Positions 29,002-46,560 of a DNA stretch of 64,000 nt are shown here, in pieces. The first letter of the stretch is position 1. Each line of letters starts with the position of its first letter. Under the pieces are notes generated by a model that was not told the origin of the DNA, made no database searches, and was given only the letters and a program-made list of their open reading frames with translations. The stretch comes from an uncultured Acidobacteriota bacterium. GTDB lineage: Bacteria; Acidobacteriota; Thermoanaerobaculia; Gp7-AA8. The stretch spans positions 160,001 through 224,000 of the forward strand of contig CAVUKB010000001.1 of assembly GCA_963741955.1 (NCBI GenBank), given 5' to 3'. Both the position numbers and the translations under genes were made by a program.

Positions 29002-29168
29002 TACTATTGTTGAATTTCGCCCGTCGGGGGAGGCGCGGCGCTGATGCGAATAACAGCGTTCCCGGCCAGCGAGCTGGCCCGGCGGCATGGCCGCCCAGCC
29101 GAGGGCGGTTCCAATATTCACCATGGCCGATGAGCTCCGCCGCTCACCTGGGTCGAGGCGATGCGCCC

Positions 29169-29920: not shown

Positions 29921-32453
29921 ATTCCCCTGGCGTCGCTTGCTGCCACCCAGCTTTCGTCGGCCCGGCGAAGGATGCCTGTAGCCTGACGGTCGGAGTCATG
30001 TACGCGGACCAAAAAATCGCGGTGCCGAACTGGTTCGGCGCGACGATGCCCTTCGCGCCGGGCGTGGTGAGCCCCGGTTGCACCTGCCATGTCCAGTCGG
30101 GCTCCGGAGAATACACCGCGGAGTAGCTTCCGGACTTGTGAGGACCTTCGAGGTTGCTCGCGAACGCCACGGCTGCGACCTCGAAATTGATAGTCACCGT
30201 GCCGGATCGGTCGTATCCAATCGCGCGGTCGGTGAGCGGCTCGAGCTGGAACGGAGTCGCCTCGGCAATCGATCGAGCGTCCACGGACGCTGCGACCTGT
30301 AGCGAACCCGATGCGAAGTCGTAGATCCGGTGCTGCGTCGCATATTTGAACTTCTGACCCTCGATCCATTGGAGCTCCCGGAACGGTACCGCGCCTGTTG
30401 TGGGTTTCGCGAACCGCCAATAGCGGTGTGCGCCCGGAGGCATCCATTCGATCGTCGCGTATCCGGGTTGCCGGTCGTAGTTCTTCGTCGTGATCCCCGT
30501 CCATGCCGCACCATCGTCAGACCAGGAGATCGCCGCGAGGAAGCCGGCCGCCGCCGTGTAGGCTCGGCACGACACGAATTCCTTCGCGTTTCCGGCGCCG
30601 AGATCGATCTGCACGTAGGATGCACCGGACGAATTCCAGGTGAAGGCATTCGTCGCGGGGTCGCCGTCGTTGACGGCCGACGGGGTGAAGAGCGAGCATC
30701 CGGAGGAGCTCCAGTATGCCGCGGACCAGAACTGCTCGATCCGATCGTAGGGCGCAGTCCACCAGGCCGTCTTTCCGTCGGCCGAGACGAACGGGCCGAG
30801 GACCGCAGGCGGCGTCTGGATCACGTCGACGGCGGCCGGATTGATCGTCACTCCGACCGATTTCCCATACCTCCCGACGAGATACGCGGTGATCTCATAG
30901 TTTCCGCCGTTGTTCACGGGGTCGATCAGCACCGGCGAGCTCGCGGCGGTCGTGATGAGCCGAGCCTCGCCTCCGTCGACCGCAGACCAGATCTCGACAC
31001 CGGTGAGCCAGGCGTAATTCGGGAGGTCGAACGAGACGCGGGCCCGCGCTCTCGCGACCCCGTCACCATCCACGTATAGCTCCGGAGCGAAGGCGAGATT
31101 CGCGACGTCCGGCGGATCGTCAGACGGCGACGGAATGGAGCTCGCAATTTTCCCGGGATCAGCGACCACGGCGTCGGAATAGCAGGCGGCGGAGTACTCG
31201 AGGAGGGAGACGTTCGCGGTCACGTTCGGCTGGCGATTGCGCGCCCACACTAGAAAGTCCTGCGCGGCAATCCCGCGGCGCGTTACCGTCTGTTGCACGC
31301 GCGCACCGATCGGCTGATCGGCTGTCGCGAGCCATCCGGCCGCGAGCCGGAAATCGAACTGCAGGCGGTTCAGATAGTAGATCGCGAGCCGGCGGGCTTG
31401 CGATCGCGAGCGGATCCAGGGGAGCTGGTAGACCACAGGCCGTCGCTCCTCCGTCCCCGCCGTGACTGCCGCCGTCTCGACGGACTCGAAGTCGCGGGTC
31501 AGCGCGTTCGCCTCGTCGGTGAACCAGACCTCGACGTAGTTCGGCCGCTGGGTCGGATCTTCCCGTGCCCCAGAATCCGAATCCTTGATGAGGTCCCCGT
31601 CGGAGTAGATAGCGGCGACGGCCTGCGGCCGGTCGAGCCAGAGCCGCCACTGATTCCCTTGGTAAAAGTGATAGCCGCCCATGAGGAGCCCGAACGTCTT
31701 CTGCCAGTCGCTCGCCGATGTTGCGTCCTGCACCGCGACGTGCGACGCGTATCGCGGCTTTCCGCCCACGACCTCGTCGCAGACGTCTGCCGCGTCAATC
31801 CAGTCCTGGGTGACGAGACGCGAGGCGTCGAGATTCTTCCCCTCTGCATCGAGGTGCCAGTCGTAGTCCTGCAGGGCCGTGTTCTCGCTGTAACCGACAA
31901 GCATTGATCGGAGGTCGAGCACCTTCCGGCCTCGGATCGAAATATCGATCGTTGGGAACTCGGGCCAGAAGTAGCTGATGATCCCGAGCCAGACGACGAG
32001 GTAGGCGATCCCGTCGAGCGTCTCCGCCCAGCTCGCATCCACGGCCGCGAGATTCGGATCGGCCGTCTGGCCGGCGGCACCGCGGTAGGTCCAAATCCTG
32101 AGACGCGAGGCGGGGAAGGTCGCGTAATCCTTCTTGTTCACGAGGATCGACGTGAACGCATCGATCTCACCACGACCGACCGGCATCACCGCCCAGAGAG
32201 AATTCGTGGCCGAGGGATTCCCAAAGGTGTAGAGGGGATTCGAGATTGGGATCGTGTGCTTGCCGTAGTAGATCGGGACGGGCCCGCTCGCACCGCCGAT
32301 CTGCGTCTCGCCCTTCGTGATCGTATGCGCCGTGCGGTTGGTGACGAGCGGATGCGTGACGGTCGGAGTGGTCGGCACGTCCCCGCCGAGGTTCGGCGGC
32401 GTATAGAACGGCGGAGGAGGCGCCGGCCCGCGAACGATGCGCCCGCGAGACAT
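29886..32453 (-). CDS. Phage tail tip/host-specificity protein (lambda J/GTA-like) with FN3-like and F5/8-type C-like domains
   Basis: PVPIYYG, IRGRKV, AADVCDE, RSQARRLA; VNDGD..YVQIDLG..SDDG..RYWRF discoidin-like motif. Confidence 0.8.
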   Translation of the reverse strand: MSRGRIVRGPAPPPPFYTPPNLGGDVPTTPTVTHPLVTNRTAHTITKGETQIGGASGPVPIYYGKHTIPISNPLYTFGNPSATNSLWAVMPVGRGEIDAFTSILVNKKDYATFPASRLRIWTYRGAAGQTADPNLAAVDASWAETLDGIAYLVVWLGIISYFWPEFPTIDISIRGRKVLDLRSMLVGYSENTALQDYDWHLDAEGKNLDASRLVTQDWIDAADVCDEVVGGKPRYASHVAVQDATSASDWQKTFGLLMGGYHFYQGNQWRLWLDRPQAVAAIYSDGDLIKDSDSGAREDPTQRPNYVEVWFTDEANALTRDFESVETAAVTAGTEERRPVVYQLPWIRSRSQARRLAIYYLNRLQFDFRLAAGWLATADQPIGARVQQTVTRRGIAAQDFLVWARNRQPNVTANVSLLEYSAACYSDAVVADPGKIASSIPSPSDDPPDVANLAFAPELYVDGDGVARARARVSFDLPNYAWLTGVEIWSAVDGGEARLITTAASSPVLIDPVNNGGNYEITAYLVGRYGKSVGVTINPAAVDVIQTPPAVLGPFVSADGKTAWWTAPYDRIEQFWSAAYWSSSGCSLFTPSAVNDGDPATNAFTWNSSGASYVQIDLGAGNAKEFVSCRAYTAAAGFLAAISWSDDGAAWTGITTKNYDRQPGYATIEWMPPGAHRYWRFAKPTTGAVPFRELQWIEGQKFKYATQHRIYDFASGSLQVAASVDARSIAEATPFQLEPLTDRAIGYDRSGTVTINFEVAAVAFASNLEGPHKSGSYSAVYSPEPDWTWQVQPGLTTPGAKGIVAPNQFGTAIFWSAYMTPTVRLQASFAGPTKAGWQQATPGEYVTHALDIEPR

Positions 32454-32842
32454 CAGGAGACATCCTCGATGAGCTGGACGTCGAGCTTCCACAGATCCGC
32501 CTCGAAATGAGACGGAACGAACCCTTTTTCCGCGAGATACCAGACCGAATACCTCGAGCGAGCTCCTGCTGAGGTGAACGTTATCGCCGCTCCGTTCGCG
32601 GGCGCCGCCGCGAATGTGATCTGGTCCTCGCCCTCCGGCCCCGCGCCGGCCGTCAGCACGACTCCGGTCAGCACGCCCGCCACATAGACGGACGGGGCGT
32701 CGACCTCCTTCGCAGGGAGGTAAAACACCGTCGTCACTCCGTCACCGGTTCCGACGACGCCATCCGAGACAGGCAACGTCCAGAAGTCGAAGAATGAGAA
32801 CTTCGTCGCGCGGTTCGCGAGCCAATGCTGCCAGAGGTGTAA
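32453..32842 (-). pseudogene. 5'-truncated DUF2460-like distal tail protein
   Basis: FSFFDFW..GTGDGVTTVF..ITFAAAPANGAAIT..LIE; no start codon, fused behind the protease gene. Confidence 0.65.
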
Positions 32843-34151
32843 TCGTCGATCGCAATCCCGGCGGCGCGAGCCCCCGCGAGGGCGAGTGGAGCTGCGCGGC
32901 CTCGGGGTCGATCGCGACTTCCTTTCCCGCAACCCTTACCGTGCCGCCCACCTGGCCGGCCTGCACCGGAGGCGCCTCCGGCGCCGGATCCGTCCCCCGC
33001 GCCTGGGCGCGCGGGAGCTCGTCGGCCATCTTCGAGATGACCTCTTTCGCGTGCTCGATCCCGTGCTTCTTCGCGAGCTGCCTGACCCATGGTTCTTTCG
33101 CCGGCGTCACCTTCGGCCGGTTGGCGGCGATGAGCGCGTCGAGCTGCTCCTCCGCGGACTTCGCGGAGAGTTGCGCGAGCTCCGCCTTCGCCGCATCGCG
33201 CTCTGCGATGACGGCGTCGTGCTCCTCGCGCGTGACGACGCCCGCCGGCGAGCGGAGCTCGATGAGCTTCGCCTGAACCGTCGCGAGGTCCGCGTCATCC
33301 TCGATCTCGAGCAGCTCGAGCACCTCGGCCGATGCAACCGGGAGCTCGACGGCTCCGGCATCGTCAGGCTCTGATTTCGCGGTCTGCATCAGCACTTCGG
33401 CGATCGTCGCCGGAGACCCGTCGGATTTCGCCGCGCCGACCTCGAAGAGCATCTGATCGCCGTCCGGCAGTGCGTCGATAACCCGCTGAACAGCAGCCTT
33501 CAGCTCGCTCAGCGTCGTGGTGACTGGCAGCCCCAGCATGTACTGCAGGCGTTCGATGATCTCGTCCATCCCGTTTCCTCCCTTTGCCTTGATCGTCTTC
33601 ATTCGCGCGACCGCCTTCGCGGCGATCTGTTCGTAGAGCTCCGCCTGGTTGTGCGATGCGGGGAGATTCGTGAGAGCCAGCGAGAGCAGAGCCCGGATCC
33701 TCATAGTCTCGGGGTCGTAGAGGTAGACCGGCGAATGGTAGCGATACTCGCCGGAGCGGACCATCTCCGCCGCGCGATCGTTCCACTCGATGGACTTCGC
33801 GATCAGTCCCGCCGTCCCGCCCGCGACGAGTTCCCCTATGAACCCCGCGGCTGGCGCAATCTCGCCGGTGTGCGTCTGGTGCTCGTAATCGATCGGGATC
33901 TTGACGCCCCGGTCACTAAACCCGCCGACGATCTCCTTCTGGCTCGCCGCGTCGGTGACGTAGGTCCCGTGGTCGTTCTCGTAAGTCGGGAACGGGAACA
34001 CAAGGAGCTCGGACGGCAGCCCGTCTGCACCCGCTTTCGCCCCCTTTCGGCGGATCTCGACCGCCTTACCGACGAGCACGGCCAGCCCCGAGCCGTCCAG
34101 ATCCACAGAACCCGCCTTATGTCGTGCTATTTTTTGCGATCGCCCCTTCAT
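32742..34151 (-). CDS. Mu-like prohead protease I/scaffold (3' end disrupted)
   Basis: IPIDYEHQT..APAAG, EWNDRA..EYRYHSPV, ALTNLPA; in-frame internal start MDEIIERL at 33569 with AGGAGG RBS (gpZ-like scaffold). Confidence 0.88.
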   Translation of the reverse strand: MKGRSQKIARHKAGSVDLDGSGLAVLVGKAVEIRRKGAKAGADGLPSELLVFPFPTYENDHGTYVTDAASQKEIVGGFSDRGVKIPIDYEHQTHTGEIAPAAGFIGELVAGGTAGLIAKSIEWNDRAAEMVRSGEYRYHSPVYLYDPETMRIRALLSLALTNLPASHNQAELYEQIAAKAVARMKTIKAKGGNGMDEIIERLQYMLGLPVTTTLSELKAAVQRVIDALPDGDQMLFEVGAAKSDGSPATIAEVLMQTAKSEPDDAGAVELPVASAEVLELLEIEDDADLATVQAKLIELRSPAGVVTREEHDAVIAERDAAKAELAQLSAKSAEEQLDALIAANRPKVTPAKEPWVRQLAKKHGIEHAKEVISKMADELPRAQARGTDPAPEAPPVQAGQVGGTVRVAGKEVAIDPEAAQLHSPSRGLAPPGLRSTITPLAALAREPRDEVLILRLLDVACLGWRRRNR

Positions 34152-34307
34152 GGCTCCCGTCCTACCCTCTCACGCCCGATCGCGCCCCAGAGGGCCGCCT
34201 TGCGCGATTTCGATTCCTGACCGATACTGGATGTGCACCCCTCGTCACCCGGATGCCGCGTGCGGCTGCCAACGGAGCGAGGCGTGAGTCCAGGCACGCT
34301 CTGCGAC

Positions 34308-35585
34308 TCACTCTTTCCTCCCCGCCCGGCTGAACACGAGCAGCCCGTTCCTCTCCCGCCGTTCGATACCCTTCCAGTCGCTGGGAGATTCGGGCGACGA
34401 TCTGTAGATCGTGCGGAGCCGCAACCAACCTTCGGCCGAGCGTTCGAAGTAGATCGCGACGATCTTCTTTTTGTCCTCGATCGTGTAAATCCCGAGGTAG
34501 CGTTTGATGTAGTAGGGAGCTCCGTCCGGGCGGTTTCGTCTCACGTACCAGACCTCGGCCGGATTCTCGAGAACGTGCTGGATGAGCGGGAGCACGATGC
34601 CTCGCTCAGCGCGCGCGGCCGGCGAGAGCTGCTCGCCCGATGATGCGTATCCGGCGAGATGCAGAAAGGTGTCTTCATTGACGCGCACGCCGTCGGACGC
34701 ATAGTCGACGAACCAGGCCCCGGTCGCTCCCTCACCGATGCCTGTCGCCTCGCGGAAGGCGTTCCAGTCTGCAGCGCGATCGCCGCGAAAGGGCGACCCG
34801 AGGCGCGGAGGTGAATCCGGCGGCAACGTGTCGAGTGACGCGAGTCCATAGTCCGCCGCCGTCTTCATCGGGATCTCGGGGCCGAGGTCCGCGAGCGCTT
34901 TCGCGAAGAACCGGTCATCCGCCGCCATGACGTTCTTCGGCGCGAAATCGAACCCCGGATCCGGCAGGATCTCGCGCCCGTCGATCACCGGGCCGAGTTT
35001 TGGGTTTTTCTCCCCGTGCTCGTAGAGCTTCCCGCTCTCGCCCGCCTGCTCCGCTGTCAGCGATGTCACGTTGTAATGGCGTTCGTTGTGGTGATTCGGC
35101 GGATAGATGTGATCCCAGATCGGGTCATCGTGGCGCGCGACCAGGCCCTCGAGCTGCCGGCAGATCGCGCTGGTCCGTCCGTCGTGCGGCCCGAGCGGAT
35201 ACTGCCAATAAGGGCGCTCGTCGAGGACGTCGGGATCGCTCAACTGCTGATAGCGCCCGGCCGCGGTCGCGGTGGCGATCGCGTTCTGGTGGATAAGCTC
35301 GAGCCGCTGGGGCGACAGGATCGTCCCACCCTGGGCATCGACGATCTCGCCCAGGTGATCCGCGAAATCGCTCTTCGTCATACCGCTGGCCAGCGCCTCC
35401 TCGACTAAACGATTCGCCTCGAGCAGAGACGAATAGCGCTGCAAGCCGGTGATCGTGAACGCTCTCGGACGGGCTTCCGGAATGAGCGAATAGAAGTTGT
35501 CCGCGACCATCGGCGAGCGCTTCCGCTGAAAGAGGAGCGCCTCCTGGAAGGGCTTGAGGACCTTGCGGACCGCGGGCGTCGTCAT
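34308..35585 (-). CDS. MuF (gpF) minor head protein with a C-terminal PBECR-like nuclease extension
   Basis: RAFTITG, RLELIHQN..AGRYQQ..PYWQY..DGRT, YPPN, PDPGFDF; extension VLENPAEVW..KRYL..RNGLLVFSR. Confidence 0.82.
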   Translation of the reverse strand: MTTPAVRKVLKPFQEALLFQRKRSPMVADNFYSLIPEARPRAFTITGLQRYSSLLEANRLVEEALASGMTKSDFADHLGEIVDAQGGTILSPQRLELIHQNAIATATAAGRYQQLSDPDVLDERPYWQYPLGPHDGRTSAICRQLEGLVARHDDPIWDHIYPPNHHNERHYNVTSLTAEQAGESGKLYEHGEKNPKLGPVIDGREILPDPGFDFAPKNVMAADDRFFAKALADLGPEIPMKTAADYGLASLDTLPPDSPPRLGSPFRGDRAADWNAFREATGIGEGATGAWFVDYASDGVRVNEDTFLHLAGYASSGEQLSPAARAERGIVLPLIQHVLENPAEVWYVRRNRPDGAPYYIKRYLGIYTIEDKKKIVAIYFERSAEGWLRLRTIYRSSPESPSDWKGIERRERNGLLVFSRAGRKE

Positions 35586-37126
35586 GCCGACTCCTCCGCC
35601 ACGTCGCCCGCGCCCATTGCTTCCGCGACCGCCATTGCCTGCGCGAGGATCTCGCCGTGGCGCGCCGAGTCGAGCTGGTCTACGCTCTCCCACAGCCGGT
35701 CGATCGCCTCGTCGAGCGTCTCTGCTCCGCGGACGAGCTCGAGGATCTTTTGAGTCTGCTCGCGGTTCGCGATCGTCCCGAGCTCGAGGACGAGGGCGGC
35801 GACATCCTCCGCCGTTTGGAGCTTTGGCTTCTTCGGCCCGCTCGCCGCGGCCGTACCGGTCCGCCTCTTCGCGGCGCCGAGCCCCGCGGGCGGCGCCGGA
35901 GCGGTCGCCTCGACCGTGCGCACCTGAAACACGTCCTCGATCTGCGAGGGGTCGATGGCTCGGCCCACCGAGGCGAGCGCCTCGTTTACGATCACGTAGA
36001 CTTGAGACGTCTTCGTGAGATCGGCCGGCGGCGCTGCATTGATGCGGAAATTCGGGATCTCTCCGCTCTCGACCTGGTCCCATCCCCGGTTGAAACCCCA
36101 CCACACGGCGACGACCTGTTCCTGCACGCTCTCGGCAATCTGCCCAGCGACGGCTTCGATGTTGTCGTTCGCGACTTCTTCGGCGTGATTGCCAGCGAGC
36201 GTGCCCGTCCCGCTCTTCGCCTCTGAGTTGAGCACGTGCCCGTTGATCAACTTCGTGATCGCTTCGTCGGATGCGGAGATGATCGCCTGGTAGAGCGACG
36301 TCGTGCCGTAGCGCTGCGCCTCCTGGAGTTTGACCTCGGTACCGGCTGGGAATGCCGCCCGCGCGTTCGCGGCGAGCCCTGTGATTGCTTCGAGCACCGA
36401 GTCGCGCGATTCGGCGCGGTCGAAGAACGCCCAGATCATCGGGTTCCCGTAGGCGTTCGCAAAGCGCATGAGCCATTCCCAGGAGGAATGTTTGAAGAGC
36501 CAGTACCAGGCGATCTTCCTCCACAGTCCGCGCTCGGTGAGCCGGCCGTCGGAGAGTCCACCCGAGTGGAAGACGAACCCTCGAGGGTTCACAGGCTCGC
36601 CGGCGGACGGACTCGCGATCGTGCGGAGTCGCAGCTCCCTCGTCGTCGGATCCTGACGCCAGCGCGGAGCGTCGACGACCTCCCACCCGGAGACCTTGTA
36701 GTCACGCGACCAGAGGATCTCCGGAGCGACGAATGGATAATGCTCACCGAAAACGAGGTGATACCGGAGACCGGAAAACGTGCGGAAGCCGTTCAGCATC
36801 GCGCTCACGTCCTCCGCGTCCTTCTTCGCGCCGGCGGAATCGTCGAACGGCTCGATGGACCAGTCGAGCTTCGAGACTGCGGACGCGAGATTGCGATACG
36901 ACGAGAAGACGTGCGCGTCCTCCAGGAGCTTCTTCGCGACGAGCATCTGTTGCTCGAGCGCAGCGTTGCCGCGCAGGACTCGCGCGAGGAACTCGGGGGT
37001 GAGCGTGCCGGTCGTGAGCCCCGCCCACGGATCGCGCACCCGTCCAATCTCCGCCTGCCGGTCCGGCGGGCGTTTGTCGAACGTGACGGTGTTGCCGAAA
37101 GCGTCGTAGAGGACCGTCTCAGCCAC
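35582..37126 (-). CDS. Mu gp29-like portal protein (DUF935)
   Basis: LTPEFLARVLR, DAHVFS, GLWRKIAWYWLFK..W..FANAYGNP, GTLAGNHAEEV. Confidence 0.88.
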   Translation of the reverse strand: MAETVLYDAFGNTVTFDKRPPDRQAEIGRVRDPWAGLTTGTLTPEFLARVLRGNAALEQQMLVAKKLLEDAHVFSSYRNLASAVSKLDWSIEPFDDSAGAKKDAEDVSAMLNGFRTFSGLRYHLVFGEHYPFVAPEILWSRDYKVSGWEVVDAPRWRQDPTTRELRLRTIASPSAGEPVNPRGFVFHSGGLSDGRLTERGLWRKIAWYWLFKHSSWEWLMRFANAYGNPMIWAFFDRAESRDSVLEAITGLAANARAAFPAGTEVKLQEAQRYGTTSLYQAIISASDEAITKLINGHVLNSEAKSGTGTLAGNHAEEVANDNIEAVAGQIAESVQEQVVAVWWGFNRGWDQVESGEIPNFRINAAPPADLTKTSQVYVIVNEALASVGRAIDPSQIEDVFQVRTVEATAPAPPAGLGAAKRRTGTAAASGPKKPKLQTAEDVAALVLELGTIANREQTQKILELVRGAETLDEAIDRLWESVDQLDSARHGEILAQAMAVAEAMGAGDVAEESA

Positions 37127-38825
37127 GATACGCCCCCCATCCATCGCGACTCTGGCCCCACGCGGGGACCTGTGCGCCACGCGGTGTGACGATCTCGAAC
37201 GGCATGAACGCCGGAGCGACGAGCTCCGCGATGCGCGCCGAGTTGCCCGCCATCCCGAAGTGGTTCGCGACGCCCTTCACGTACCGATCGACCGCGCGTC
37301 CCTTCGCGTCGATGACCCGCTCCTTCCGGAGGTTCTTGAGATGCTGCGAGAGCGTCGAGAGGACCTCGCTCTCCTTCGCCGGGAGGATCAGCCCGAGCGG
37401 TCCGGTGATCTCGGCGGTGAAGTCGTCCAGCGACTCGTCGCGGTTCACCTTCACGCACCGATAGGTCCGCGACTCATGCTGCTCTTCGACGAGCTTCTGC
37501 TCGGACGAATCGGTGAAGTCCTGCAGGACGACCGTTCGCGGGAACCGGTATGCGAGCGCTCGCGCGACCGTGGTCAGCGGCTTCTTGTCGATCACGAGTT
37601 GAGTGATCCCGATCCGGTCGATGATCTCCGATACCCGCTCGACCGCCCGATCGCTGTCGATCTCTTCGATCCAGACGAGGCGCTTCCGGCCGTCCGGGAG
37701 CCGCTCGTCCACCCAGAGATGACACAGGTCGCCCGTGTCCATCCCGCCGTAGCGCGGAAGAAACCCGCGCGCCCCGGACAGCACGCACTCGGACGACCGC
37801 ATCGCGGCGAGCTCGGCGTCGCTCACGGGCTGCATTGCCCCGGCGTCCGGGATCGCGAGGACCGAGCAGCGAAACTTCGCCATCTCGGATTTCTTTCGCT
37901 GCGCTCGCTGCCACCGATGCCAGATCGCGTCGCCCGGCATCGATCCGACCGCGAGCGCGGAAAGACGGAACGAATAGCGACGGGATTTTTCCCGGTTTGG
38001 GAAGGTCGCGACCCACTCGCCGCGGGAAAGATCGAGCTCGCGCCTGCAACGCGGACAGACCCGCGTCCAGTGCCCGCCCAGCTTGGCCATGCACTCCGGA
38101 AACGTCTCCTCGAGACAGATCCCGCGTAGCCGGCAATGCGCGCAGCGGAACAGTATCCGGCGCTGCGAGCCTTCTTGCCACTTCGAATCGATGCCCGCGC
38201 CTGGCGTGTAGCCGGCGGAGAAATAAATCGCAAGACGGAGAGGCGAGCGAGCCACGCGGCCGCGTGACCATTCGAGGTTCTCTTCCGGCAGTAGGTCCAC
38301 CTCGTCATAAGCGAGGACGTCGAGCGGAATCGAGACCGCGCCGAGCATCGCCTCGAGGCCGAGGACGTACAGGAACCGGCCGTCGAACTCTTTGATCGTC
38401 GCCTGGCTTACGACCTCGCGATCGCGAAGATGCGACGAGAGGAACGGAGAGCGGCTGATCATGCGCTTCAGCCGCGTGCGGCCGAATCGGTGCGCGAACT
38501 TGTCGGTCGGCAAAAAGTATCCGACGTTGTACTGGCGATCGGCGACCAGATGCAGAGCGGCCCCGATTCCGATCGTCGTCGCGCCGACCTGCTCGGCCTT
38601 GAGTAGCGTGATCTCGCTGTCCGTCTCTCTCCTGCGCACCGCGCGATCGAGGATCCCCAGGAGCTCGCCGAAGGGCTCGTATCCCGTGAGCGACCAGCGG
38701 CCGTTCTCGGTGTCGACGTCCTGCTCGAGGAAGTCCTGGATGGTCGAGGGACGAGCGGCGACGCCCGGGGCGGTCGCATCTACGGACAGAGTACCCAGCC
38801 AGTCTGCGGTGGTGTTGCGCGTCAC
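37119..38825 (-). CDS. Terminase large subunit (lambda GpA-like)
   Basis: LKAEQVGATT Walker A, YDEVD Walker B, CAHC/CPRC zinc motifs, GMDTG nuclease motif, NHFGMA. Confidence 0.85.
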   Translation of the reverse strand: MTRNTTADWLGTLSVDATAPGVAARPSTIQDFLEQDVDTENGRWSLTGYEPFGELLGILDRAVRRRETDSEITLLKAEQVGATTIGIGAALHLVADRQYNVGYFLPTDKFAHRFGRTRLKRMISRSPFLSSHLRDREVVSQATIKEFDGRFLYVLGLEAMLGAVSIPLDVLAYDEVDLLPEENLEWSRGRVARSPLRLAIYFSAGYTPGAGIDSKWQEGSQRRILFRCAHCRLRGICLEETFPECMAKLGGHWTRVCPRCRRELDLSRGEWVATFPNREKSRRYSFRLSALAVGSMPGDAIWHRWQRAQRKKSEMAKFRCSVLAIPDAGAMQPVSDAELAAMRSSECVLSGARGFLPRYGGMDTGDLCHLWVDERLPDGRKRLVWIEEIDSDRAVERVSEIIDRIGITQLVIDKKPLTTVARALAYRFPRTVVLQDFTDSSEQKLVEEQHESRTYRCVKVNRDESLDDFTAEITGPLGLILPAKESEVLSTLSQHLKNLRKERVIDAKGRAVDRYVKGVANHFGMAGNSARIAELVAPAFMPFEIVTPRGAQVPAWGQSRDGWGAYRG

Positions 38826-39454
38826 GCGGCACCTCCGAGCTGACGCTGACGGACCTCTTCGACCTTTGCGAGCACACGCCGGAGGAGCGGAGGATCGTCG
38901 CGGAGGAGCTGCTCGAGCTCCGCGCGCAGGATCTTGAGCGCGCGGTCGACGCCTCGCGTGACGGCGAGGCGCGTCCGCTCGCGCGCCGCGCTCGAGCTCT
39001 GCAGCTTTGCGGCCGCGACGACGGTCGAGAGCTCCTCGTCCGAGAGGGCTTTCGGCTTCCCGTTCTCATCTTCTCCGAGAAGCGACTCGAGGATCCGCGT
39101 ATTGAGGAGCTGCGAGACGGCCTCCTCGAGCGCGAGCACCTCGTCCTGGTCGGAGGTGCGGAGGAGCTTGGCCTTCTCGACGAGCATCCGCACCGCGCGG
39201 CGCTGGATCTCGAATTTGTAACCGTATCGCGCGAGCGCGCTGCGCGAGACGTGGTAGCCCGTACCGCGGAGCCGCTCGATCATCTCGTCGTAGGTCGGCC
39301 GCGGGATCTCGAGGAGCCACGAATCGATGAGCTGCGCGAGGCCGACGTGCAGCTCGACCGCCGGATGGCCGCGACGCGGCTTCCCGGCCGGCCGCTTGTC
39401 CGCCGGTTTCTTCGCCGCCGGCTTCCGGCCCGGCTTCTGCGCCGCTCGCGTCAT
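38822..39454 (-). CDS. Mu gp27-like (DUF3486) putative terminase small subunit
   Basis: TYDEMIERL...GYHVSRSALARY; directly upstream of the large terminase. Confidence 0.8.
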   Translation of the reverse strand: MTRAAQKPGRKPAAKKPADKRPAGKPRRGHPAVELHVGLAQLIDSWLLEIPRPTYDEMIERLRGTGYHVSRSALARYGYKFEIQRRAVRMLVEKAKLLRTSDQDEVLALEEAVSQLLNTRILESLLGEDENGKPKALSDEELSTVVAAAKLQSSSAARERTRLAVTRGVDRALKILRAELEQLLRDDPPLLRRVLAKVEEVRQRQLGGAA

Positions 39455-39735
39455 GCGGTGCGCTCCCGTTTCAGCGCACGGTGTACGCCCGCGAACCCGT
39501 CGCGCATCTGATCTGCCAGGTCGATCCGCTGCCGGACTTCGCCGAGCTGCTCACGCGTCGCGTATTCCTCGCGGATGTCGCGTGCGAGCTGACCCTGCAG
39601 CTGGAGGAGAGCATTTGCCACCTCGAGCTTCTCCTGTCGGAGTGTCGTCCGGATCGAGTAGACGAGGAGCGCGACGATGCCGTTGAGGAGCATCGTCGCG
39701 ATGAGCGAGGCGAGAGAGATGACCAGCGGCGTCAC
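39451..39735 (-). CDS. Phage membrane protein (Mu gp25/DUF2730-like position)
   Basis: N-terminal TM then coiled coil with YATREQL; GTG start overlaps the upstream stop. Confidence 0.55.
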   Translation of the reverse strand: MTPLVISLASLIATMLLNGIVALLVYSIRTTLRQEKLEVANALLQLQGQLARDIREEYATREQLGEVRQRIDLADQMRDGFAGVHRALKRERTA

Positions 39736-40046
39736 TGCGCAGCACCCCCGGCGCCGCGGCATTTCGCGAGCTCGCCCTGGAGGCGCGCGATCTTCTCCCT
39801 TAGCGCTGCATATGTCGCCGCGTCGAGCAGAATGCCATCGAACGGAGCGGCCTCGCCGGACGCGATCCAGTGGACGCGGACATCGACGGGCGTGACCGGA
39901 GCTGCGGCGACGATCGGGCCGCGGGCGCGGATCCGCATTGCCCCGCACCCGGCCGCGAAAGCGAGAACCAGGAGGAGACAAAGGGCGACCGAGGCCGCGC
40001 AGCGGCTACCTAAGAGCCGCTTCGATGTCTGACTTGCTGCGGTCAT
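39732..40046 (-). CDS. Putative o-spanin lipoprotein
   Basis: Lipobox LAFAAG-C; overlaps the upstream TM gene; start uncertain. Confidence 0.5.
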   Translation of the reverse strand: MTAASQTSKRLLGSRCAASVALCLLLVLAFAAGCGAMRIRARGPIVAAAPVTPVDVRVHWIASGEAAPFDGILLDAATYAALREKIARLQGELAKCRGAGGAAQ

Positions 40047-40209
40047 CGTCCTTTCTCTCCACCTCATTCGCGATTTCCGTGAGCGCCTCCGACACCTGCG
40101 TGTCGGTCTTCGCCGCGCGCCGCGCCGGATCAGAGTTCCCGCGGATCAGCATCAGGATCAGCGTCACGATCCCGCTGAGCAGAGCGACTACCGCGCCGAG
40201 AGTCGTCAT
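40006..40209 (-). CDS. Putative i-spanin-like membrane protein
   Basis: Single N-terminal TM followed by a charged helical region; overlaps the lipoprotein gene. Confidence 0.45.
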   Translation of the reverse strand: MTTLGAVVALLSGIVTLILMLIRGNSDPARRAAKTDTQVSEALTEIANEVERKDDDRSKSDIEAALR

Positions 40210-40727
40210 TTCGCCGCCCATGCGCCGGCTTCGCATACGTACCATGTCGAGCCTGCGCCGCCCTCGGTTCGCGAGTAGAACGAGCCCGTCGTGCATGCGC
40301 CCGACGGAGCTCCGGCTCCCGCGGTCCAGGACGGACCCGCAGATAGGGCGAAAGAATCAGAGATCGTTCCGCCGGTGACGTTCGCGCCTCCGGCAGATAC
40401 GTACAGGCCTCCGGCATCAACATCGAGACCACCGGTGGTGATCTCCAGCGCGTCGGTGACCAGTGAGAAGGCGTTCCCCTGGGTGCTCGTGATCTGCATC
40501 AAGTCGACCCAATGGCCAACCGGAAACTGAACGAATTGGTGTTGGTTGGTGATGCCGACGCCGCCGATCGTCACGTTCTGGCCGTTCAGGCTGGTGATGC
40601 TCAGAGTGGCGGTCGAGATCGAATCGACTGAGAGATTCTGCGAAACGCCCTTGCGCGTCTCGGTCCCGGCAGCAAGCGTCGCCGTCGTGAAGGTCAGGAG
40701 CAGGATGGCGATCAGTCGTCGTTTCAT
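40206..40727 (-). CDS. Exported protein with a fibre/tailspike-like C-terminal motif
   Basis: GAGGAG RBS; Sec signal MKRRLIAILLLTFTTATLA; C-terminal GAGAPSGACTTGSFYSRTEGGAGSTWYV..W. Confidence 0.65.
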   Translation of the reverse strand: MKRRLIAILLLTFTTATLAAGTETRKGVSQNLSVDSISTATLSITSLNGQNVTIGGVGITNQHQFVQFPVGHWVDLMQITSTQGNAFSLVTDALEITTGGLDVDAGGLYVSAGGANVTGGTISDSFALSAGPSWTAGAGAPSGACTTGSFYSRTEGGAGSTWYVCEAGAWAAK

Positions 40728-40739
40728 CGTGGTCTCCTC

Positions 40740-41060
40740 TCAGGCGTGGCTCTTGTTGAGTGCGACGACGATCGTGCATTGCGCATCGGCAAAGAACCGC
40801 AATTGCTGCGATAGCAGCCAGCTCGAGTTGTTCACCTGAAACACGTCGCCGGCACTCATCGGCATGTCGTTCGCGTCCGCGTCGGTGCCGTCGTTGTTGC
40901 GGTAGACGGTTCCTGCCGTCACCTGAATCTCGGCATCGCTGCATCCGTCCGGAAGTGCGGCGAGGCCGCAGAGATCCGCGAGGGTCGTCGTGCCGGCGAG
41001 TGCAGCGGCCGAGGTCGTGTAGGTGCCGAGGCCGATCGTGGCCGCCTGGACGATGTGCAT
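40740..41060 (-). CDS. Phage hypothetical protein
   Basis: GGAGG RBS; operon-like spacing. Confidence 0.6.
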   Translation of the reverse strand: MHIVQAATIGLGTYTTSAAALAGTTTLADLCGLAALPDGCSDAEIQVTAGTVYRNNDGTDADANDMPMSAGDVFQVNNSSWLLSQQLRFFADAQCTIVVALNKSHA

Positions 41061-41062
41061 TG

Positions 41063-41152
41063 CTATTTCCTCCGCCGGCGCGCGCGCACCATCGCGACGC
41101 AGAGGAGCGCGATCAGCGCGAGCAGGATGTATTCGGTGATCAAGTAGGGCAT
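41063..41152 (-). CDS. 29-aa single-TM peptide (MPYLITEYILLALIALLCVAMVRARRRRK)
   Basis: GAGGTG RBS; fills the gap between neighbours; TM followed by a basic tail. Confidence 0.5.
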   Translation of the reverse strand: MPYLITEYILLALIALLCVAMVRARRRRK

Positions 41153-41156
41153 CCCT

Positions 41157-41555
41157 TCACCTCGGGTCTTCGGCGGTTGGCAAATGCGGCGGCGCGAGCT
41201 GCGGCGCCGGCTCCCGGTTGATCTCGAGCGCCTTCTCCCACCAGGCCCGCGTCGGCTTTTCCTTCATCGTTGCGTGGCCGTATTCGTCTGCGAGCAGGAT
41301 GGCGGTCCGCTCGCCGAGCCATTCGCCGTGCGGGCCGCGGTCCGTCACGCGCACTGTGTCGACGACGCGAGATAGATCGAGCGTCACGATCGCGTAGTGC
41401 TTCCCGCACTCCTGGACTCGGAGAATCTTTGCGCCGTCGCGCCAGGGCACGGTCCATCCGCGATGGGAAGGCCGCGGCGGCCCGATCTCACTCGCTCCCA
41501 GCACGCACGCGATCAGGCTCGCGACGGCGACGACGGCGCAAAGGTGTTTTCGCAT
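41157..41555 (-). CDS. Exported phage hypothetical protein
   Basis: N-terminal hydrophobic signal-like segment; 4-nt gap from the upstream gene. Confidence 0.55.
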   Translation of the reverse strand: MRKHLCAVVAVASLIACVLGASEIGPPRPSHRGWTVPWRDGAKILRVQECGKHYAIVTLDLSRVVDTVRVTDRGPHGEWLGERTAILLADEYGHATMKEKPTRAWWEKALEINREPAPQLAPPHLPTAEDPR

Positions 41556-41559
41556 CGCG

Positions 41560-41799
41560 TCAGTTTCCGCCGAGTGACGCCTTCACCGCGCTCCGACCAG
41601 CGATGTACTTCGCGCCGGGCCAGGCCATGAGGACGAAGGTCAGCACCTTGTCGAGGACGCTGACGATCGCCGCGATCGCAGGGCTCGCCGTGACCGTCCC
41701 AACATCGACGTTGCCCGCCATGCCGAACAGGTGCAGCACCGCGACGATGAAGATGACGACGACCGTGAGAAACTCCGTGCTCTTCCATCCAGGCTTCAT
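41560..41799 (-). CDS. Putative holin
   Basis: AGGAG RBS; MKPGWKSTEF start, two TM segments, basic YIAGRSAVK tail. Confidence 0.6.
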   Translation of the reverse strand: MKPGWKSTEFLTVVVIFIVAVLHLFGMAGNVDVGTVTASPAIAAIVSVLDKVLTFVLMAWPGAKYIAGRSAVKASLGGN

Positions 41800-41885
41800 G
41801 CTCTCTCCTTTGAAGTCCCGCCGAGCGGCCCTGATCCGCCCGGCGGGCGAACAACAACATCGTGCGCGCATCGCGCTCTGGAAAT

Positions 41886-42525
41886 TCAATCGATTGATGC
41901 GAACGGGATCACGCGCGGCGTCCCGGCCCTCCGGTCGGTCACCACCGCGAATCCATAGATCTGCTGCGAATACGCTGCGACGCTCCCGGGGAACCCGACG
42001 CCAGAGCCCTCGGTGAGCTCGATCCGCCCGACGCTCACCCGCGTCGCGAGCTCGACGAATGTGAGCTCGCCGTCGCCGGCCACGTCGAAACTCTCGGTCC
42101 CGGCCAACTGGTTGTCGTGGTCATAGACTCGCGCGGTGACGACGCTCGGCGTCCCCTCGTCGAAGAAGGCCAGATGGGTGACCCAACGGTCATCGTTCTG
42201 GATGATCCGCACGTCCTGCGGATCCGGGAGGTGAGCAGTCAGCGGTGGCACTTCGAAGGAGATTGACAGGCCGCCTTCGACGAATCGCATGAGCGAGGTC
42301 ACGCGCGCGGAGCCTTCGAGAATCTTCACCTGGGTGATCCCGGCGCGCGGGCCGCAGACGTATCGTCCGAAGTCCTCCGCGATCGCCGAGCCGTTCGGCG
42401 GGATCGTGATCTGCCAGGATTCGGACCAGCACCCGGACGGCGCGATCGTCGCGCCATCGGTGGTCGTGATCAGCAGATCCGTGTCGTAGAGATCCGTGTC
42501 GGCGTAGACCAGGCGCGGGGCGCTG
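41886..42525 (-). pseudogene. 5'-truncated beta-sandwich surface-protein-like gene
   Basis: Protein-like sequence from APRLVYADTD to YGFAVVTDRRAGTP; upstream codons look like the antisense of the + strand ORF. Confidence 0.45.
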
Positions 42526-43017
42526 GAAAATCTGGACGAAAAATCAACGCGAGGAGCTCTCGGACCTCGAAAGGACGCCAGGAGCGGAGATTCGCCCACG
42601 GAGTGGAAAAGGCGTCGCCGCGGTCCCGGGGGACCGCTCTCGGCTCAGTCAGTTCGCCGCCGATTGGAATTCGCGCAGTCGCTCACGCGCCGCCGGCGAG
42701 AGTCTCCCGCCGGCGACAGCGGCTCTTCGTCATTTCGTGGCCCTCGCGGCCTCAATCTCATTGAGCTGAAACTGCTGATAGTCGATCTCGAGCTTCGCGA
42801 TCTCGAGCGAGTCGCCAGCTTCGTCCTGGGAATGGCTGAAGCGTATTCGGCGGGCGTCGCCGGATACGCGAGCGGCCATCATTCACATCAATCGAATTCA
42901 CCGAAGCCGGACTGGCGCGTCTTCGTGGAAGTCCGGCCAGCGCCTCCGGATGCCCCGGCGGAGCAGCCGTTGGCAGAGCAGGAGTCGATCGAGGCGAGCA
43001 TTTCGAGCGCGCCATAG
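42525..43017 (+). pseudogene. 5'-truncated early-operon gene fragment
   Basis: Frame stays open from ~42508 (LENLDEKSTRG..) to TAG at 43017, with no RBS-supported start. Confidence 0.4.
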
Positions 43018-43106
43018 ATCCCTCTGCGAAACCGCGTGCTCGCCCGAGTGCGCGGTCGTCCGCTGGTGGCTCGGCGGGCCTGATGAGCAGCCCAGGAGAT
43101 GACGCT

Positions 43107-43376
43107 ATGGAATCGCTCACACCACAGGCAGCACGGGAGGTTGAGGTGCGAAGGATCGTCGCCGGCGTATGCGGACGATCGGTCGTCGGCACGACGGCAG
43201 GGACGCGGATCCGTCGAGATCTCGGGCTCACGGTCGACCAGGAGCGCGAGATCGCATGGCAGCTCTCGAATGCGTTTGGGATCGATCTCCGTGCGATCGA
43301 GTGGGCCGACCTCGTGACAATCGGGGACCTCCTTAATCGTGTCGATATCGCGATCGAACGGGAGCGATTCGCATGA
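43107..43376 (+). CDS. Acyl-carrier-protein-like protein lacking the Ppant serine
   Basis: AGGAG RBS; gapless by-eye alignment to ACP, with DLGLTVDQ in place of DLGADSLD, plus FGIDL and TIGDL. Confidence 0.65.
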   Translation: MESLTPQAAREVEVRRIVAGVCGRSVVGTTAGTRIRRDLGLTVDQEREIAWQLSNAFGIDLRAIEWADLVTIGDLLNRVDIAIERERFA

Positions 43377-43645
43377 CCGCGCTCGCGCAGCTGCATGTCG
43401 CAGTACTGGCGGCGACTTGCGCCCGCGAGGACGGACGTCCTCAGTCGTTCATCGACGTCATCAATATCCTCGCCGCCGCGGATCCGAGCGACATCGCTGC
43501 GGCAGTACTGGTTCTCGAGAGGGCAGGCTTCGTGCGCGTATTCGACCGCGACGGGCGCACTTGGGTGCGGCCGCAACGGACCGCCTGGATCGTGATCGCT
43601 GCGCACCTGAAACTCGCCAGAAGAGGCACGGAGTACGCGGCATGA
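43373..43645 (+). CDS. Phage hypothetical protein (winged-helix-like)
   Basis: ATGA overlaps at both ends; LVLERAGFVR wHTH-like motif. Confidence 0.6.
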   Translation: MTALAQLHVAVLAATCAREDGRPQSFIDVINILAAADPSDIAAAVLVLERAGFVRVFDRDGRTWVRPQRTAWIVIAAHLKLARRGTEYAA

Positions 43646-44040
43646 GCGGGTCCTGGCTCGAGCGTGGAAGCGTCGATCGGGCGCATGCAGTCAGCGTGGT
43701 CAAGATTATCTGGCGCCGTCTCGGCCGGGCCTCTGCGATTTCGATGCACGCGATCCGCCGTCAGACCGGTATCCCGACTCGCGAGATTCAATCGATCGTG
43801 AAATGGCTGGTCGAAGAGCGATCTCTCCCGATCGGCACGTCGCCCGCGCGGCCGTGGGGTTACTACTGGATCTCGACCGAAGACGAGCGACGAAAGGTCC
43901 GAAACCACTTCATCCGGCGCGCTCTCTCGACCCTCGAGCACGCGAAAGCCTATGACCGGGATTCGATCGTGGCCCCGCTGGTCGGACAACTCAAGCTCAT
44001 TTCGGAGGAGGGCGAGCATGAGTCGCAAGAAATACGGTGA
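43642..44040 (+). CDS. Winged-helix DNA-binding phage protein
   Basis: AISMHAIRRQTGIPTREIQSIV..LPIG..GYYWISTEDE. Confidence 0.7.
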   Translation: MSGSWLERGSVDRAHAVSVVKIIWRRLGRASAISMHAIRRQTGIPTREIQSIVKWLVEERSLPIGTSPARPWGYYWISTEDERRKVRNHFIRRALSTLEHAKAYDRDSIVAPLVGQLKLISEEGEHESQEIR

Positions 44041-44713
44041 CCGTGAGCGTCGGATCGCGATCGAGATCTACGAGGCGACCGGAAGCCACTTAAAGGCAGC
44101 AGCGGCCGCCGGAACCTCGCCGTGTTGGGTATATGAGCTCCTGCGCCGGGAGGGCCGCGTGAAGCGTGCGTGGCCAACCTATACCGCGCGGCAAGCGCAT
44201 CGGGCGGTGGAGCTGTATCGCTCTGGTCTAAGCACATCTCTCGTGGCACAAGAGATCGGCGGCGTGTCACGTGAATGGGTGCGCGTGCAGGTCGTGGCTG
44301 CTGGAATCCTTCGTTCGAAATCTCACGCGATGCGGCTGCGTATGGCTAGGGAGAAGGGCCGAGACTACGAGCAGCTGCGGCGAGAGGCTCTCGAGCTCGC
44401 GACAGAGCAATTGATGTCCGTGCGTGCCATCGCAAAGTATCTCAGCGTCTCGACGAACTTCGTGAAACAGGCGATCCCTCGGGAGCTGCGTTGCAATCCG
44501 AAGGACGCAACGCTGCGCCGCAAGTGGCAGGCCTTCCTTCCCGACGTCGAGGCCCGCCGGGAGCGGCGTGAGCGGGTAATTTTGATGCGGCGCGGAGGTG
44601 CGACCTACGCGCGGATCATCGCCGAAACGGGTGTCTGCCAGGCGACCGTCTACCGTTATCTCTCCGAGGCCGGGCTCACCGGCTCGCTGCGCGACCAAAG
44701 GAGGATGAGGTGA
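44018..44713 (+). CDS. Multi-HTH DNA-binding protein
   Basis: GGAGG RBS; four HTH-like segments (AAAAAGTSPCWVY, VAQEIGGVSREWVR, IAKYLSVSTNFVK, IIAETGVCQATVY). Confidence 0.75.
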   Translation: MSRKKYGDRERRIAIEIYEATGSHLKAAAAAGTSPCWVYELLRREGRVKRAWPTYTARQAHRAVELYRSGLSTSLVAQEIGGVSREWVRVQVVAAGILRSKSHAMRLRMAREKGRDYEQLRREALELATEQLMSVRAIAKYLSVSTNFVKQAIPRELRCNPKDATLRRKWQAFLPDVEARRERRERVILMRRGGATYARIIAETGVCQATVYRYLSEAGLTGSLRDQRRMR

Positions 44714-45573
44714 TTACTTCTGCGCAAATTCGCATGCTGCATATCGCCCAGCGGCAGCTCGAGATTCCGCGTGAGCACTACGAGGCGATCATGCTCGAGG
44801 CAGCCGGGGTGACGAGCTCAAAGGCGCTCGACAACGCGGGCTTCGACGCGGTGATCCGGAGGTTCGAGGAACTTGGATTCCGCAACACGGCCCGTCATTC
44901 GCGGCGTCCATATCATCCAGCCGAGCCAATCACTCATGCCCAGCAGCAGTTGATCGAGGGACTCTATCTCGAGCTCGGATGGGACGACCGCGATCGGCAG
45001 ATCGGCTTCAACCGCCGCCAATGCCGGAAATCCTGGCCACAGACCCGCCGCGACGCGAACCGGGTGATCGAAGGACTGAAGGCGATCCGCGCAAGATCGA
45101 GCCGGTCAGCCGGCCTGGGCCTCCTGGAGCTTCTTGTCGTGATCGCGGTGCTTGGGCTTCTTTTATGCGGCGCCGCGGTGGGGAAGGATCGCACGGCCAC
45201 CCCGCCCGCCCGTACCGTCATCCCGTACCTCGAAGCGTCCACTCATCCGTATCTGGCGACTGAATTCTCGGCCATCCGTGACGCCGAGAATTACATCGAG
45301 TTGCTCCCACTCCAGGAGGCGGTTACGGCCGTGATCACGCGGTGGGACGATCCCGACGATACGTCTAACACCTTCATCGTCCTGCACCGGACGAATCCCT
45401 GGCCAGCTCACGCAGCCCGAATCCCCTTGCGTGTTGGGGTATTGGATTTCGATTCCCCTGCCGCCCTGTTTAACACGCGCGAATGGTACGCTATGCAGGG
45501 CTACAAGACCGCGATGGCAACCGGGGTCGGCACGCGCCGTTACCTGCTCGTGATCGACCAGGGACCGCTCTAA
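44710..45573 (+). CDS. GemA (Mu gp16/DUF1018)-like regulator fused to a prepilin-like TM domain
   Basis: QIRMLHIAQRQL..Y..GVTSSKAL..FEELGF..ANRVIEGLKAI, followed in frame by RSSRSAG-LGLLELLVVIAVLGLLL. Confidence 0.78.
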   Translation: MITSAQIRMLHIAQRQLEIPREHYEAIMLEAAGVTSSKALDNAGFDAVIRRFEELGFRNTARHSRRPYHPAEPITHAQQQLIEGLYLELGWDDRDRQIGFNRRQCRKSWPQTRRDANRVIEGLKAIRARSSRSAGLGLLELLVVIAVLGLLLCGAAVGKDRTATPPARTVIPYLEASTHPYLATEFSAIRDAENYIELLPLQEAVTAVITRWDDPDDTSNTFIVLHRTNPWPAHAARIPLRVGVLDFDSPAALFNTREWYAMQGYKTAMATGVGTRRYLLVIDQGPL

Positions 45574-45703
45574 GGAGCGGTCACCGATCGCCGCCGGTAG
45601 TGCTCGGGCCGCCTGCTGGCATCGTGATCCCTCCGGCCTCTCTTCTTCGTCGACGTTTACTGTAGATTCACCCCTGTTTTTGCACAATTCCTTGTGCACT
45701 TTC

Positions 45704-45830
45704 ATGTCCGCTGATCAGTGCACAGCGATCGGGAGCTCGCCAGGGGTATCCTCTTGAGGCGCGGTAGTTTGCGCCGATGTCCGCTGATCGGACGCGCTTG
45801 CGCGAAAAGCCCGCAAAATGTCCGCTGATC
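45704..45830 (+). repeat. Three 13-bp direct repeats ATGTCCGCTGATC near the element end
   Basis: Exact copies at 45704, 45777 and 45818; palindrome TGCACAA-TTCC-TTGTGCA at 45681-45698. Confidence 0.75.
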
Positions 45831-45946
45831 GGCCCCGGATGATGACGGTAGGTGAGGCGTAGATGGGGCTTAATTGTCGGGTCTAGCGCGACTTACGGTC
45901 TCCATTAGGCGGGTTCGGCGATGCCTCGGGTCCGGCCGTCGCCCGT

Positions 45947-46093
45947 TTTGCGTTTCGTTTGGCAGAAAGATCGTCGGCGCGCGTCGGCGCGCGGCGTAAC
46001 CGCTGAACGTGGCTGAGGTTACGACGAGCGGCGATCCGTCCCGCCATGTCCCCTGTTATCCCGGCGTTTTGCCAAACCATCCGCAAACTCACA
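45947..46093. promoter_or_regulatory. Element end with putative transposase-binding sites
   Basis: TTTGCGTTTCGTTTGGCAGAAA at 45947-45968; terminal inverted site (reverse complement TTTGCGGATGGTTTGGCAAAAC) at 46066-46087, then CTCACA. Confidence 0.8.
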
Positions 46094-46230
46094 TTAGGCT
46101 TCGACTTTCGGGGTTGCCCCTCACCCTTCCCTCTCCCCGAATGTCGTTCCTCGGCTGAAGACATGACCCCGGACGGGGGGAGGGTGCGTCCCGCCGAGCG
46201 GCGCGGTCATCGCGTTGGCGGCTCGGCGAA
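46094..46230. repeat. Right part of the CCCTCACCC..GGGAGAGGG repeat cluster
   Basis: 46102-46230 is nearly identical to 28262-28390. Confidence 0.85.
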
Positions 46231-46333
46231 CGCGCCGAGTCACAGGAGCCGTGCGAAACCGAGTGCCGCTCCCCTGACGGGCCCGGCTGAACGAGGTGGC
46301 GTCCTTCGGTCTTCCGCGAGTCATCAGGCTCTT

Positions 46334-46560
46334 CAAATCGCGCAAATGAGATCGCTCTCGAAGCCGCTGCTCGCTCCGTCACCGCGATCGTTTTCATGGA
46401 AGACGCCAGAACGGGCTATGGCAAATCGCGCAAATGAAATCGCTCTCGAAGCCGCGAATCGCTCCGTTACCGGCGATCGTTCTCAGAGAAGACGCCCGAA
46501 CGAGCTATGGCAAATCGCCCCAATGAGATCGCTCACCAAGCCGCTGCTCGCTCCGTCACC
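46334..46560 (+). repeat. ~88-bp tandem repeat (2.6 copies)
   Basis: CAAATCGCGCAAATGAGATCGCTCTCGAAGCCGC.. at ~46334, 46422, 46511. Confidence 0.75.

Follow-up and report, generated by a model that had tools for sequence, protein, structure and literature searches.

A GemA-like protein joined in frame to a prepilin-type motif at the right end of a defective Mu-like prophage from an uncultured Acidobacteriota bacterium

GemA acts on host gene expression and DNA topology in phage Mu. Class III (prepilin) signals combine a Gly at position -1, a Glu at +5, a hydrophobic stretch and basic residues ahead of it, and the characterised prepilin leaders reach, to our knowledge, ~30 residues. Type IV pili are used as receptors by Mu-like Pseudomonas phages, and phage proteins other than the prophage-encoded mimics considered below have reportedly been found to block these pili.

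A passage of the study by Sztanko et al. (Cell Rep 2026, PMC12952977) describes the prophage-encoded pilin mimics P-FimU and P-PilA, which block pilus-binding phages. Accessory slots of the kind discussed here are known in Mu-like phages of Pseudomonas, where they are termed 'regions of genomic plasticity' in a passage of PMC4378225.

The window analyzed here, a stretch of 64,000 nucleotides from an uncultured Acidobacteriota bacterium, contains an open reading frame (ORF) in which a GemA-like module runs in frame into a prepilin-type motif. The first-pass annotation of this ORF postulated that GemA serves as the 'leader' of a pseudo-pilin, and named an accidental fusion or an indel as the main alternative. 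As discussed below, the locus is best explained by an accidental, lineage-specific in-frame fusion of gemA with a pilin-like accessory gene, in which the function of the join was not selected (probability of roughly 0.68).

The chimeric reading frame and its prepilin-type motif

The ORF and its parts are as follows.

44710-45573, plus strand: chimeric ORF (P0001) of 287 aa, comprising GemA, a prepilin-type motif and an orphan C-terminal part; ORF, family, re-assembly and codon evidence
44698-44704, plus strand: Shine-Dalgarno sequence AAGGAGG, 5 nt ahead of the GTG start, read from the letters
44710-45087, plus strand: GemA module, aa 1-126; Pfam match, and ~80% DNA identity to gemA of the relative G041 up to this point
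45088-45114, plus strand: junction zone, aa 127-135 (RARSSRSAG), ending in Gly135 (-1)
45115-45183, plus strand: pilin-type hydrophobic helix, aa 136-158, with Leu at +1 and Glu at +5 (45127-45129); profiles and AlphaFold2
45184-45570, plus strand: orphan C-terminal part, aa 159-287, with a Pro-rich linker followed by a predicted alpha/beta region of low confidence

The ORF is a single uninterrupted frame of 287 codons that extends from GTG 44710 to TAA 45571-45573, its start and the stop of the HTH gene ahead of it overlapping in GTGA. The codon score over aa 135-287 is best in the ORF frame (+0.17, with values of -0.08 to -0.86 in the five other frames), and high GC3 is kept in this frame across the C-terminal half. 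An intact ORF with normal codons over its full length is also compatible with a selected gene. Within aa 95-135, the sole in-frame start codon is a GTG at V119 (45064), with no purine-rich Shine-Dalgarno sequence ahead of it. Separate translation of the pilin-like half was therefore ruled out for want of a usable internal start, which suggests that this half is made only within the fusion. An antisense ORF (45163-45705) was rejected as a real gene because it has no family match and a poor codon score. A promoter and terminator scan of 42400-46300 yielded nothing exceeding shuffled sequences, and PADLOC left the chimeric ORF unmatched.

The sequence derives from a 16-contig genome assembly from a soil metagenome and the fusion is unique, as might be expected had two genes been merged by a false indel or by chimeric joining in this metagenome-assembled genome. 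However, from run X1 another assembler produced a Logan contig of 5,675 bp (word depth 11.1) that spans 44400-45900 with no differing letters and no gaps; run X1 is probably the source sample, and the contig represents a re-assembly rather than independent biology. Its identity across the junction makes a false indel, the sequencing error considered in the first-pass annotation, unlikely. Three short pieces from a second sample (run X2) are identical to the window, none of them crossing the junction, and run X3 contributed one 34-nt piece with three differences, beyond which the sequences diverge. Furthermore, alternative frames past 45087 reach stops at 45137-45139 and 45261-45263 and offer no GemA-like tail, and the coding score stays in one frame. 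An artefact of this type is highly improbable, and the joining of GemA and motif in one frame, as originally annotated, is upheld by the uninterrupted ORF and by the exact match of the X1 re-assembly.

The GemA/gp16-like domain had been described as complete, and this is confirmed by the Pfam GemA family (PF06252), which matches aa 22-129 with 44.8 bits (E 2.9e-11), exceeding the curated cut-off of 27 bits over the whole domain (profile positions 4-119 of 119). The chimeric ORF also matches phrog_286 (E 1.9e-20). A small stand-alone protein that ends soon after the 'VIEGLKA' helix is the norm for GemA, and the 287-aa chimera departs from it.

The translation reads Gly135, Leu136 and Glu140, then LLVVIAVLGLLLCGAAV, and the entire motif is RARSSRSAG/LGLLE-LLVVIAVLGLLL, where the slash marks the putative cut site. 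Thus, Gly(-1), Glu(+5), the hydrophobic stretch and the preceding basic residues are all there (RARSSRSAG/LGLLELLVVIAVLGLLL). When the whole protein is scored, the motif falls slightly below two curated cut-offs: the N_methyl model PF07963 aligns to aa 131-152 with 19.5 bits (E 7e-4; cut-off 21.2) and TIGR02532 yields 16.2 bits (cut-off 16.3). The corresponding scores for aa 130-287 alone are 20.6 bits for PF07963, against the cut-off of 21.2, and 17.4 bits for TIGR02532. In a six-frame scan of the bacterium's own 5.4-Mb genome with PF07963, the motif scores 23.0 bits, over the cut-off, and ranks 11 of 15. Thirteen of the 14 other N_methyl matches follow a short basic leader with a Met or GTG start close by, and the lowest-scoring one has no evident start. 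Because the genomic matches are mostly ordinary prepilin N-termini, the segment in the chimera appears to be truly pilin-like and abnormal solely in its position; rather than a short leader, 134 residues precede Gly135. Within the same phylum, a pilin-like gene (L049) likewise encodes a Leu at +1. The class III-type motif with an extra C-terminal part after GemA, as first described, is therefore retained on the basis of Gly135, Glu140, the N_methyl and TIGR02532 scores and the 130-aa C-terminal part.

Pfam and NCBIfam contain no pilin globular family that matches the chimera. No homologue of the region past the helix was found in the bacterium's own genome, in a word-indexed search (277 candidates), in the Atlas, where the structural TM of all candidates was at most 0.40, or in 50,697 records of cultured phages, five of which matched in the GemA region only. 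A tblastn search of the own genome with aa 130-287 and aa 160-287 gave a best non-self E of 0.53, confined to the helix, and similarity of aa 130-287 to a host pilus component was accordingly not found. As the C-terminal part is without homologue, the pilin nature rests on ~25 residues. Alignments of aa 129-249 with GspG-like pseudopilins were discounted, as they involve single loci, lack composition correction and are driven by the helix.

AlphaFold2, using 28 GemA sequences, models aa 1-130 with pLDDT values of 95-98 and depicts the hydrophobic segment as a continuation of the final GemA helix (one helix, aa 113-154). The pLDDT values drop to 33-42 over aa 161-240, and the mature part modelled alone averages 46.5, values that do not warrant a fold search. 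The predicted helix stops ~20 residues past the cut site and is followed by the Pro-rich linker. In type IV pilins and pseudopilins, a long N-terminal helix packs on a beta-sheet; the typical pilin helix comprises ~50 residues, and the shorter helix and Pro-rich linker of the chimera are unlike typical pilins. The continuous helix, its early end and the lack of a detected pilin globular family are consistent with an uncleaved bitopic membrane protein, in which the segment would be an anchor only, with GemA active or silenced at the membrane and an external C-terminal domain, in the manner of ToxR-type single-pass regulators. In contrast, the E values of the motif against prepilin models are 3e-4 to 7e-3, every other six-frame match with a comparable score is a pilin-like N-terminus, and none of the 149 other listed GemA homologues described below combines a hydrophobic segment with the motif. 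Such an uncleaved membrane protein is considered unlikely.

The carrier prophage and its right-end slot

No gene follows the chimeric ORF at the right end of a Mu-type insertion, which has the following features.

28951-46093: defective Mu-like prophage of 17,143 bp with termini TGTGAG...CTCACA
28946-28950: TTAGG, left copy of the 5-bp target duplication
46094-46098: TTAGG, right copy of the 5-bp target duplication
43642-44040, plus strand: winged-HTH early gene (phrog_2113), 59% identical to the G041 gene
43952-44713, plus strand: HTH_23/HTH_7 protein directly upstream of the chimeric ORF; G041 has an unrelated 88-aa ORF here
45704-45832, plus strand: three direct copies of ATGTCCGCTGATC[GA]G (at 45704, 45777 and 45818), candidate right-end protein-binding sites

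Mu-type termini (TG...CA) and the 5-bp target duplication are both present in the element. Its minus strand encodes, between 29.9 and 39.5 kb, the gp27 small terminase, the large terminase, Portal_Mu, Mu F, the Mu I protease and one tail protein. The insertion site is a copy of a 267-bp repeat, and joining the flanks rebuilds a normal unit that matches the neighbouring units. A tblastn search with 17 G041 proteins showed MuA, MuB, Gam and the repressor to be absent from the element and from the 99.1%-complete host genome, and 15 G041 ORFs at 4167-16443 have no counterpart in the window. These absences indicate a deletion derivative, which is predicted to be unable to transpose or to build particles alone. 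The element retains both Mu-type ends, the target duplication and intact terminase, portal, MuF and protease genes, and is devoid of the transposase and most structural genes. This layout would also be expected of a mini-Mu-like element that can be mobilised by a helper phage.

The nearest relative, the viral contig G041 (40,991 bp), is collinear with the element in the window and has a full early region that includes an S24 repressor, MuA (779 aa), a MuB-like AAA ATPase, Gam, a winged-HTH protein, the 88-aa ORF and GemA. The counterpart of the winged-HTH gene at 43642-44040 is located two genes upstream of the G041 gemA, with the 88-aa ORF between them. The GemA of G041, which is 59% identical to that of the chimera, comprises 145 aa and has its own stop, and a Peptidase_M64 gene starts 1 nt later. 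The encoded peptidase is IgA-peptidase-like, with an HELGH motif and a hydrophobic N-terminus (L033 17648-18406; G041 39647-40405). Thus, the same slot carries unrelated cargo in the two elements, the pilin-like half in the window and a secreted-protease gene in G041. The 15-mers ATGTCCGCTGATCGG occur in three copies in the window and in two copies in G041, downstream of the cargo gene, and the two elements also have similar terminal sequences. Because the right-end 15-mers, the right copy of the target duplication and the right terminus are all located downstream of the ORF, its 3' half lies inside the phage and is best described, from its position, as phage-borne cargo in a variable slot. 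A host gene disrupted by the phage insertion was ruled out, with the phage right-end sequence and the target duplication located 130-520 bp downstream of the ORF.

Of three identically oriented copies of a 17-mer, TTGCGTTTCGTTTGGCA, two lie immediately within the left end (28958-28996) and the third close to the right end (45948-45964). The prophage also contains a type II hammerhead ribozyme (RF02276) at 43024-43096 (plus strand), upstream of the wHTH-HTH-GemA genes, which scores 55 bits compared with a gathering score of 37. G041 carries a 37-bit hammerhead (L033 16335-16398, plus strand) 4 nt before its winged-HTH gene, and the ribozyme looks like a conserved feature of the early transcript of this phage lineage. 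The Mu F-like head protein (34308-36686, minus strand) exhibits a C-terminal PBECR2 nuclease-type domain (E 3.8e-9), a fusion of the MuF-toxin type.

The repeat family is both dispersed and tandem, with units of ~130-267 bp that are 88-98% identical, and occupies 28262-28947 and 46094-46268 of the window. The same family of 130-267-bp repeats is found elsewhere in the host genome (G000) at C5:1093679-1096447 and C7:1232308-1233146, with an array of at least eight copies on C5. Just outside the prophage, an 89-bp tandem repeat (2.6 copies, 46334-46560) overlaps the annotated start of a TPR gene (46507). A PRiA4_ORF3-like protein (26482-27573, plus strand; E 2e-60) and a phrog_6823 protein (27601-28059) are encoded just left of the repeat array, and their genes may be remnants of another mobile element.

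Occurrence and proposed origin of the fusion

A HMMER search of 1.84 billion representatives yielded 435 matches at E<=1e-3. Among the best 150, which reach E ~1e-6 and beyond which any weaker C-terminal matches would fall, all 149 non-self matches align within query residues 1-140. The hydrophobic segment and the Gly/Glu motif occur together in none of these 149 listed homologues, whose median length is 150 aa; P0138 alone exhibits a weak hydrophobic window, without the motif. A profile search of a 5.8-billion-cluster set gave 169 matches, 120 of which were listed. The 119 non-self entries among those listed are 95-196 aa long with at most 48% query coverage; 118 contain PF06252 only, one is without a Pfam family, and PF07963 is found in none. 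Each listed GemA homologue terminates at a stop codon of its own, close to query residues 126-140. A single-sequence word search returned only the chimeric protein itself. GemA-only loci were found in viral_contigs (three) and metagenome_contigs (six), and a search of genome_contigs with a 6-sequence alignment as the query returned nothing. Among 400 other genomes of the phylum, three contained GemA-only matches and five were matched just in the surroundings of the hydrophobic helix; four of these five matches correspond to ordinary N-termini of the pseudopilin-like type, and the fifth was not reproduced. No match past residue 137 is joined to GemA in the viral or metagenome loci or in the 400 phylum genomes. 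The GemA-pilin architecture is thus a singleton in the sequences searched. The conserved pairing of GemA with N_methyl for which the first-pass annotation had suggested a search did not emerge (0/149 and 0/119 listed homologues, and none in the 400 phylum genomes).

DNA identity between the window and G041 is ~80% through gemA and is lost after the codon of I126 (~45087). Close GemA homologues end 4-20 residues past 'GLKAI', the soonest after 4-7, so that the join could be anywhere within aa 127-135. RARSSRSAG is either a GemA tail or the remnant of a prepilin leader. The 'RARSSR' sequence is shared with the leader of a pilin-like ORF in G083, a short low-complexity match that provides a hint only. 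The join itself could be a deletion, a recombination or a stop loss, and by comparison with the homologues it appears to have taken nothing conserved from GemA. The searches revealed no donor pilin-like gene with its own start, and a two-gene ancestor is therefore postulated from the slot.

The accidental fusion may be envisaged as follows. A Mu-like transposable prophage would have carried a pilin-like accessory ('moron') gene in the variable slot that separates gemA from the phage right end, where this gene may have acted in the same way as the prophage mimics that block pilus-dependent phages. A complete gemA would then have become joined to it in frame, at the cost of the start and most or all of the leader of the pilin-like gene, and of no more than a few non-conserved residues from the end of GemA. 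The chimera, presumably translated from the gemA start only, is probably made as a membrane-anchored protein. It would insert into the inner membrane via the pilin-type helix, its one transmembrane helix (aa 136-158), with GemA in the cytoplasm, as the basic RARSSRS would remain inside, and the C-terminal part outside. With Gly(-1) and Glu(+5) both in place, the chimera may be a substrate for the host prepilin peptidase, and a cut after Gly135 would separate the halves and render the fusion harmless or tolerable. Accidental fusion, initially raised as the alternative, fits best with the singleton architecture, homologues that have their own stop and a defective prophage.

The own genome encodes one Peptidase_A24 (prepilin peptidase) homologue (66.1 bits), located on C5 around 1341302-1341652, and contains 10 T2SSE ATPase matches in addition to the 14 other pilin-like N_methyl matches. 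Judged by these families, the host is equipped with both substrates and motors for pilus or secretion systems. The presence of a host peptidase gene bears on the model originally proposed, a selected pro-protein in which GemA, as a 135-residue membrane 'leader', is released by the peptidase, which would yield a pilin decoy, link phage regulation to piliation and bring about superinfection exclusion. The complete set of motif elements is compatible with this model, as are a motif score within the range of the genome's own prepilins, the Leu at +1 shared with the L049 gene and the known prophage pilin mimics that block phage adsorption, as described in the passage of PMC12952977. However, the architecture is a singleton, the G041 slot holds an unrelated gene, and a prophage without transposase, B, Gam, repressor and most structural genes leaves little phage development to regulate. 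Moreover, the cleaved leader is described only as 'short' in a review passage, the literature found on unusually long prepilin leaders was limited to review usage for conjugative propilins, and a literature search linking GemA with prepilin found none. A selected role of GemA as leader that couples phage regulation to piliation is therefore quite improbable, and this part of the original proposal finds no support in the comparisons.

It is also unlikely that the chimera is a working prepilin-peptidase substrate with a folded 135-residue 'leader', in which the pilin-type helix inserts the protein into the membrane and a cut at Gly135 frees an intact GemA into the cytoplasm, the remaining 152-residue pilin-like protein being available to the pilus or secretion machinery. 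If such cleavage takes place, both modules would survive the fusion, GemA release would hinge on the host peptidase, and prepilin peptidases would accept whole domains as leaders, which would widen their substrate range from short leaders to a folded 15-kDa domain. Accident is much more likely than the peptidase-cleaved reading because the fusion occurs once, in a defective prophage of an uncultured bacterium. If the fusion is accidental only, it provides a clean, well-delimited case of a phage-end accessory gene captured into a core gene. It also adds a pilin-like cargo gene to the Mu-like phages of a probable Acidobacteriota host, an assignment of the host that is a hint only.

Comparison with described systems

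The GemA half shares a full-length domain match with GemA/gp16 of Mu and Mu-like phages (PF06252, DUF1018), and its gene is likewise located late in the early operon, with neighbours as in the relative G041. In contrast to the listed stand-alone homologues (62-392 aa, with a median of 150 aa, in one search and 95-196 aa in the other), the chimera runs 150 residues further. With the class III signal peptides of PF07963 and TIGR02532 it has in common the basic residues, Gly(-1), Glu(+5) and ~20 hydrophobic residues, with scores at or near the cut-offs, whereas its motif lies 134 residues inside the protein and has no short leader.

As in the plasticity slots of Mu-like phages described in the passage of PMC4378225, a non-homologous insert occupies a fixed position between conserved phage DNA. 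Compared with the cargo described there, the cargo in the window has lost its own start and is read as part of a core gene. The features shared with P-FimU and P-PilA, as these are presented in the passage of PMC12952977, are the pilin-type N-terminal motif, the nature of an accessory prophage gene and a host with type IV pilus or type II secretion genes. According to the same passage, P-FimU and P-PilA are similar to a component of the host pilus and are translated from starts of their own, whereas the pilin-like half of the chimera has no host paralogue, no recognisable pilin globular domain and no separate start. Pilin-like prophage cargo is already known, and what is new at this locus is confined to the fused form.
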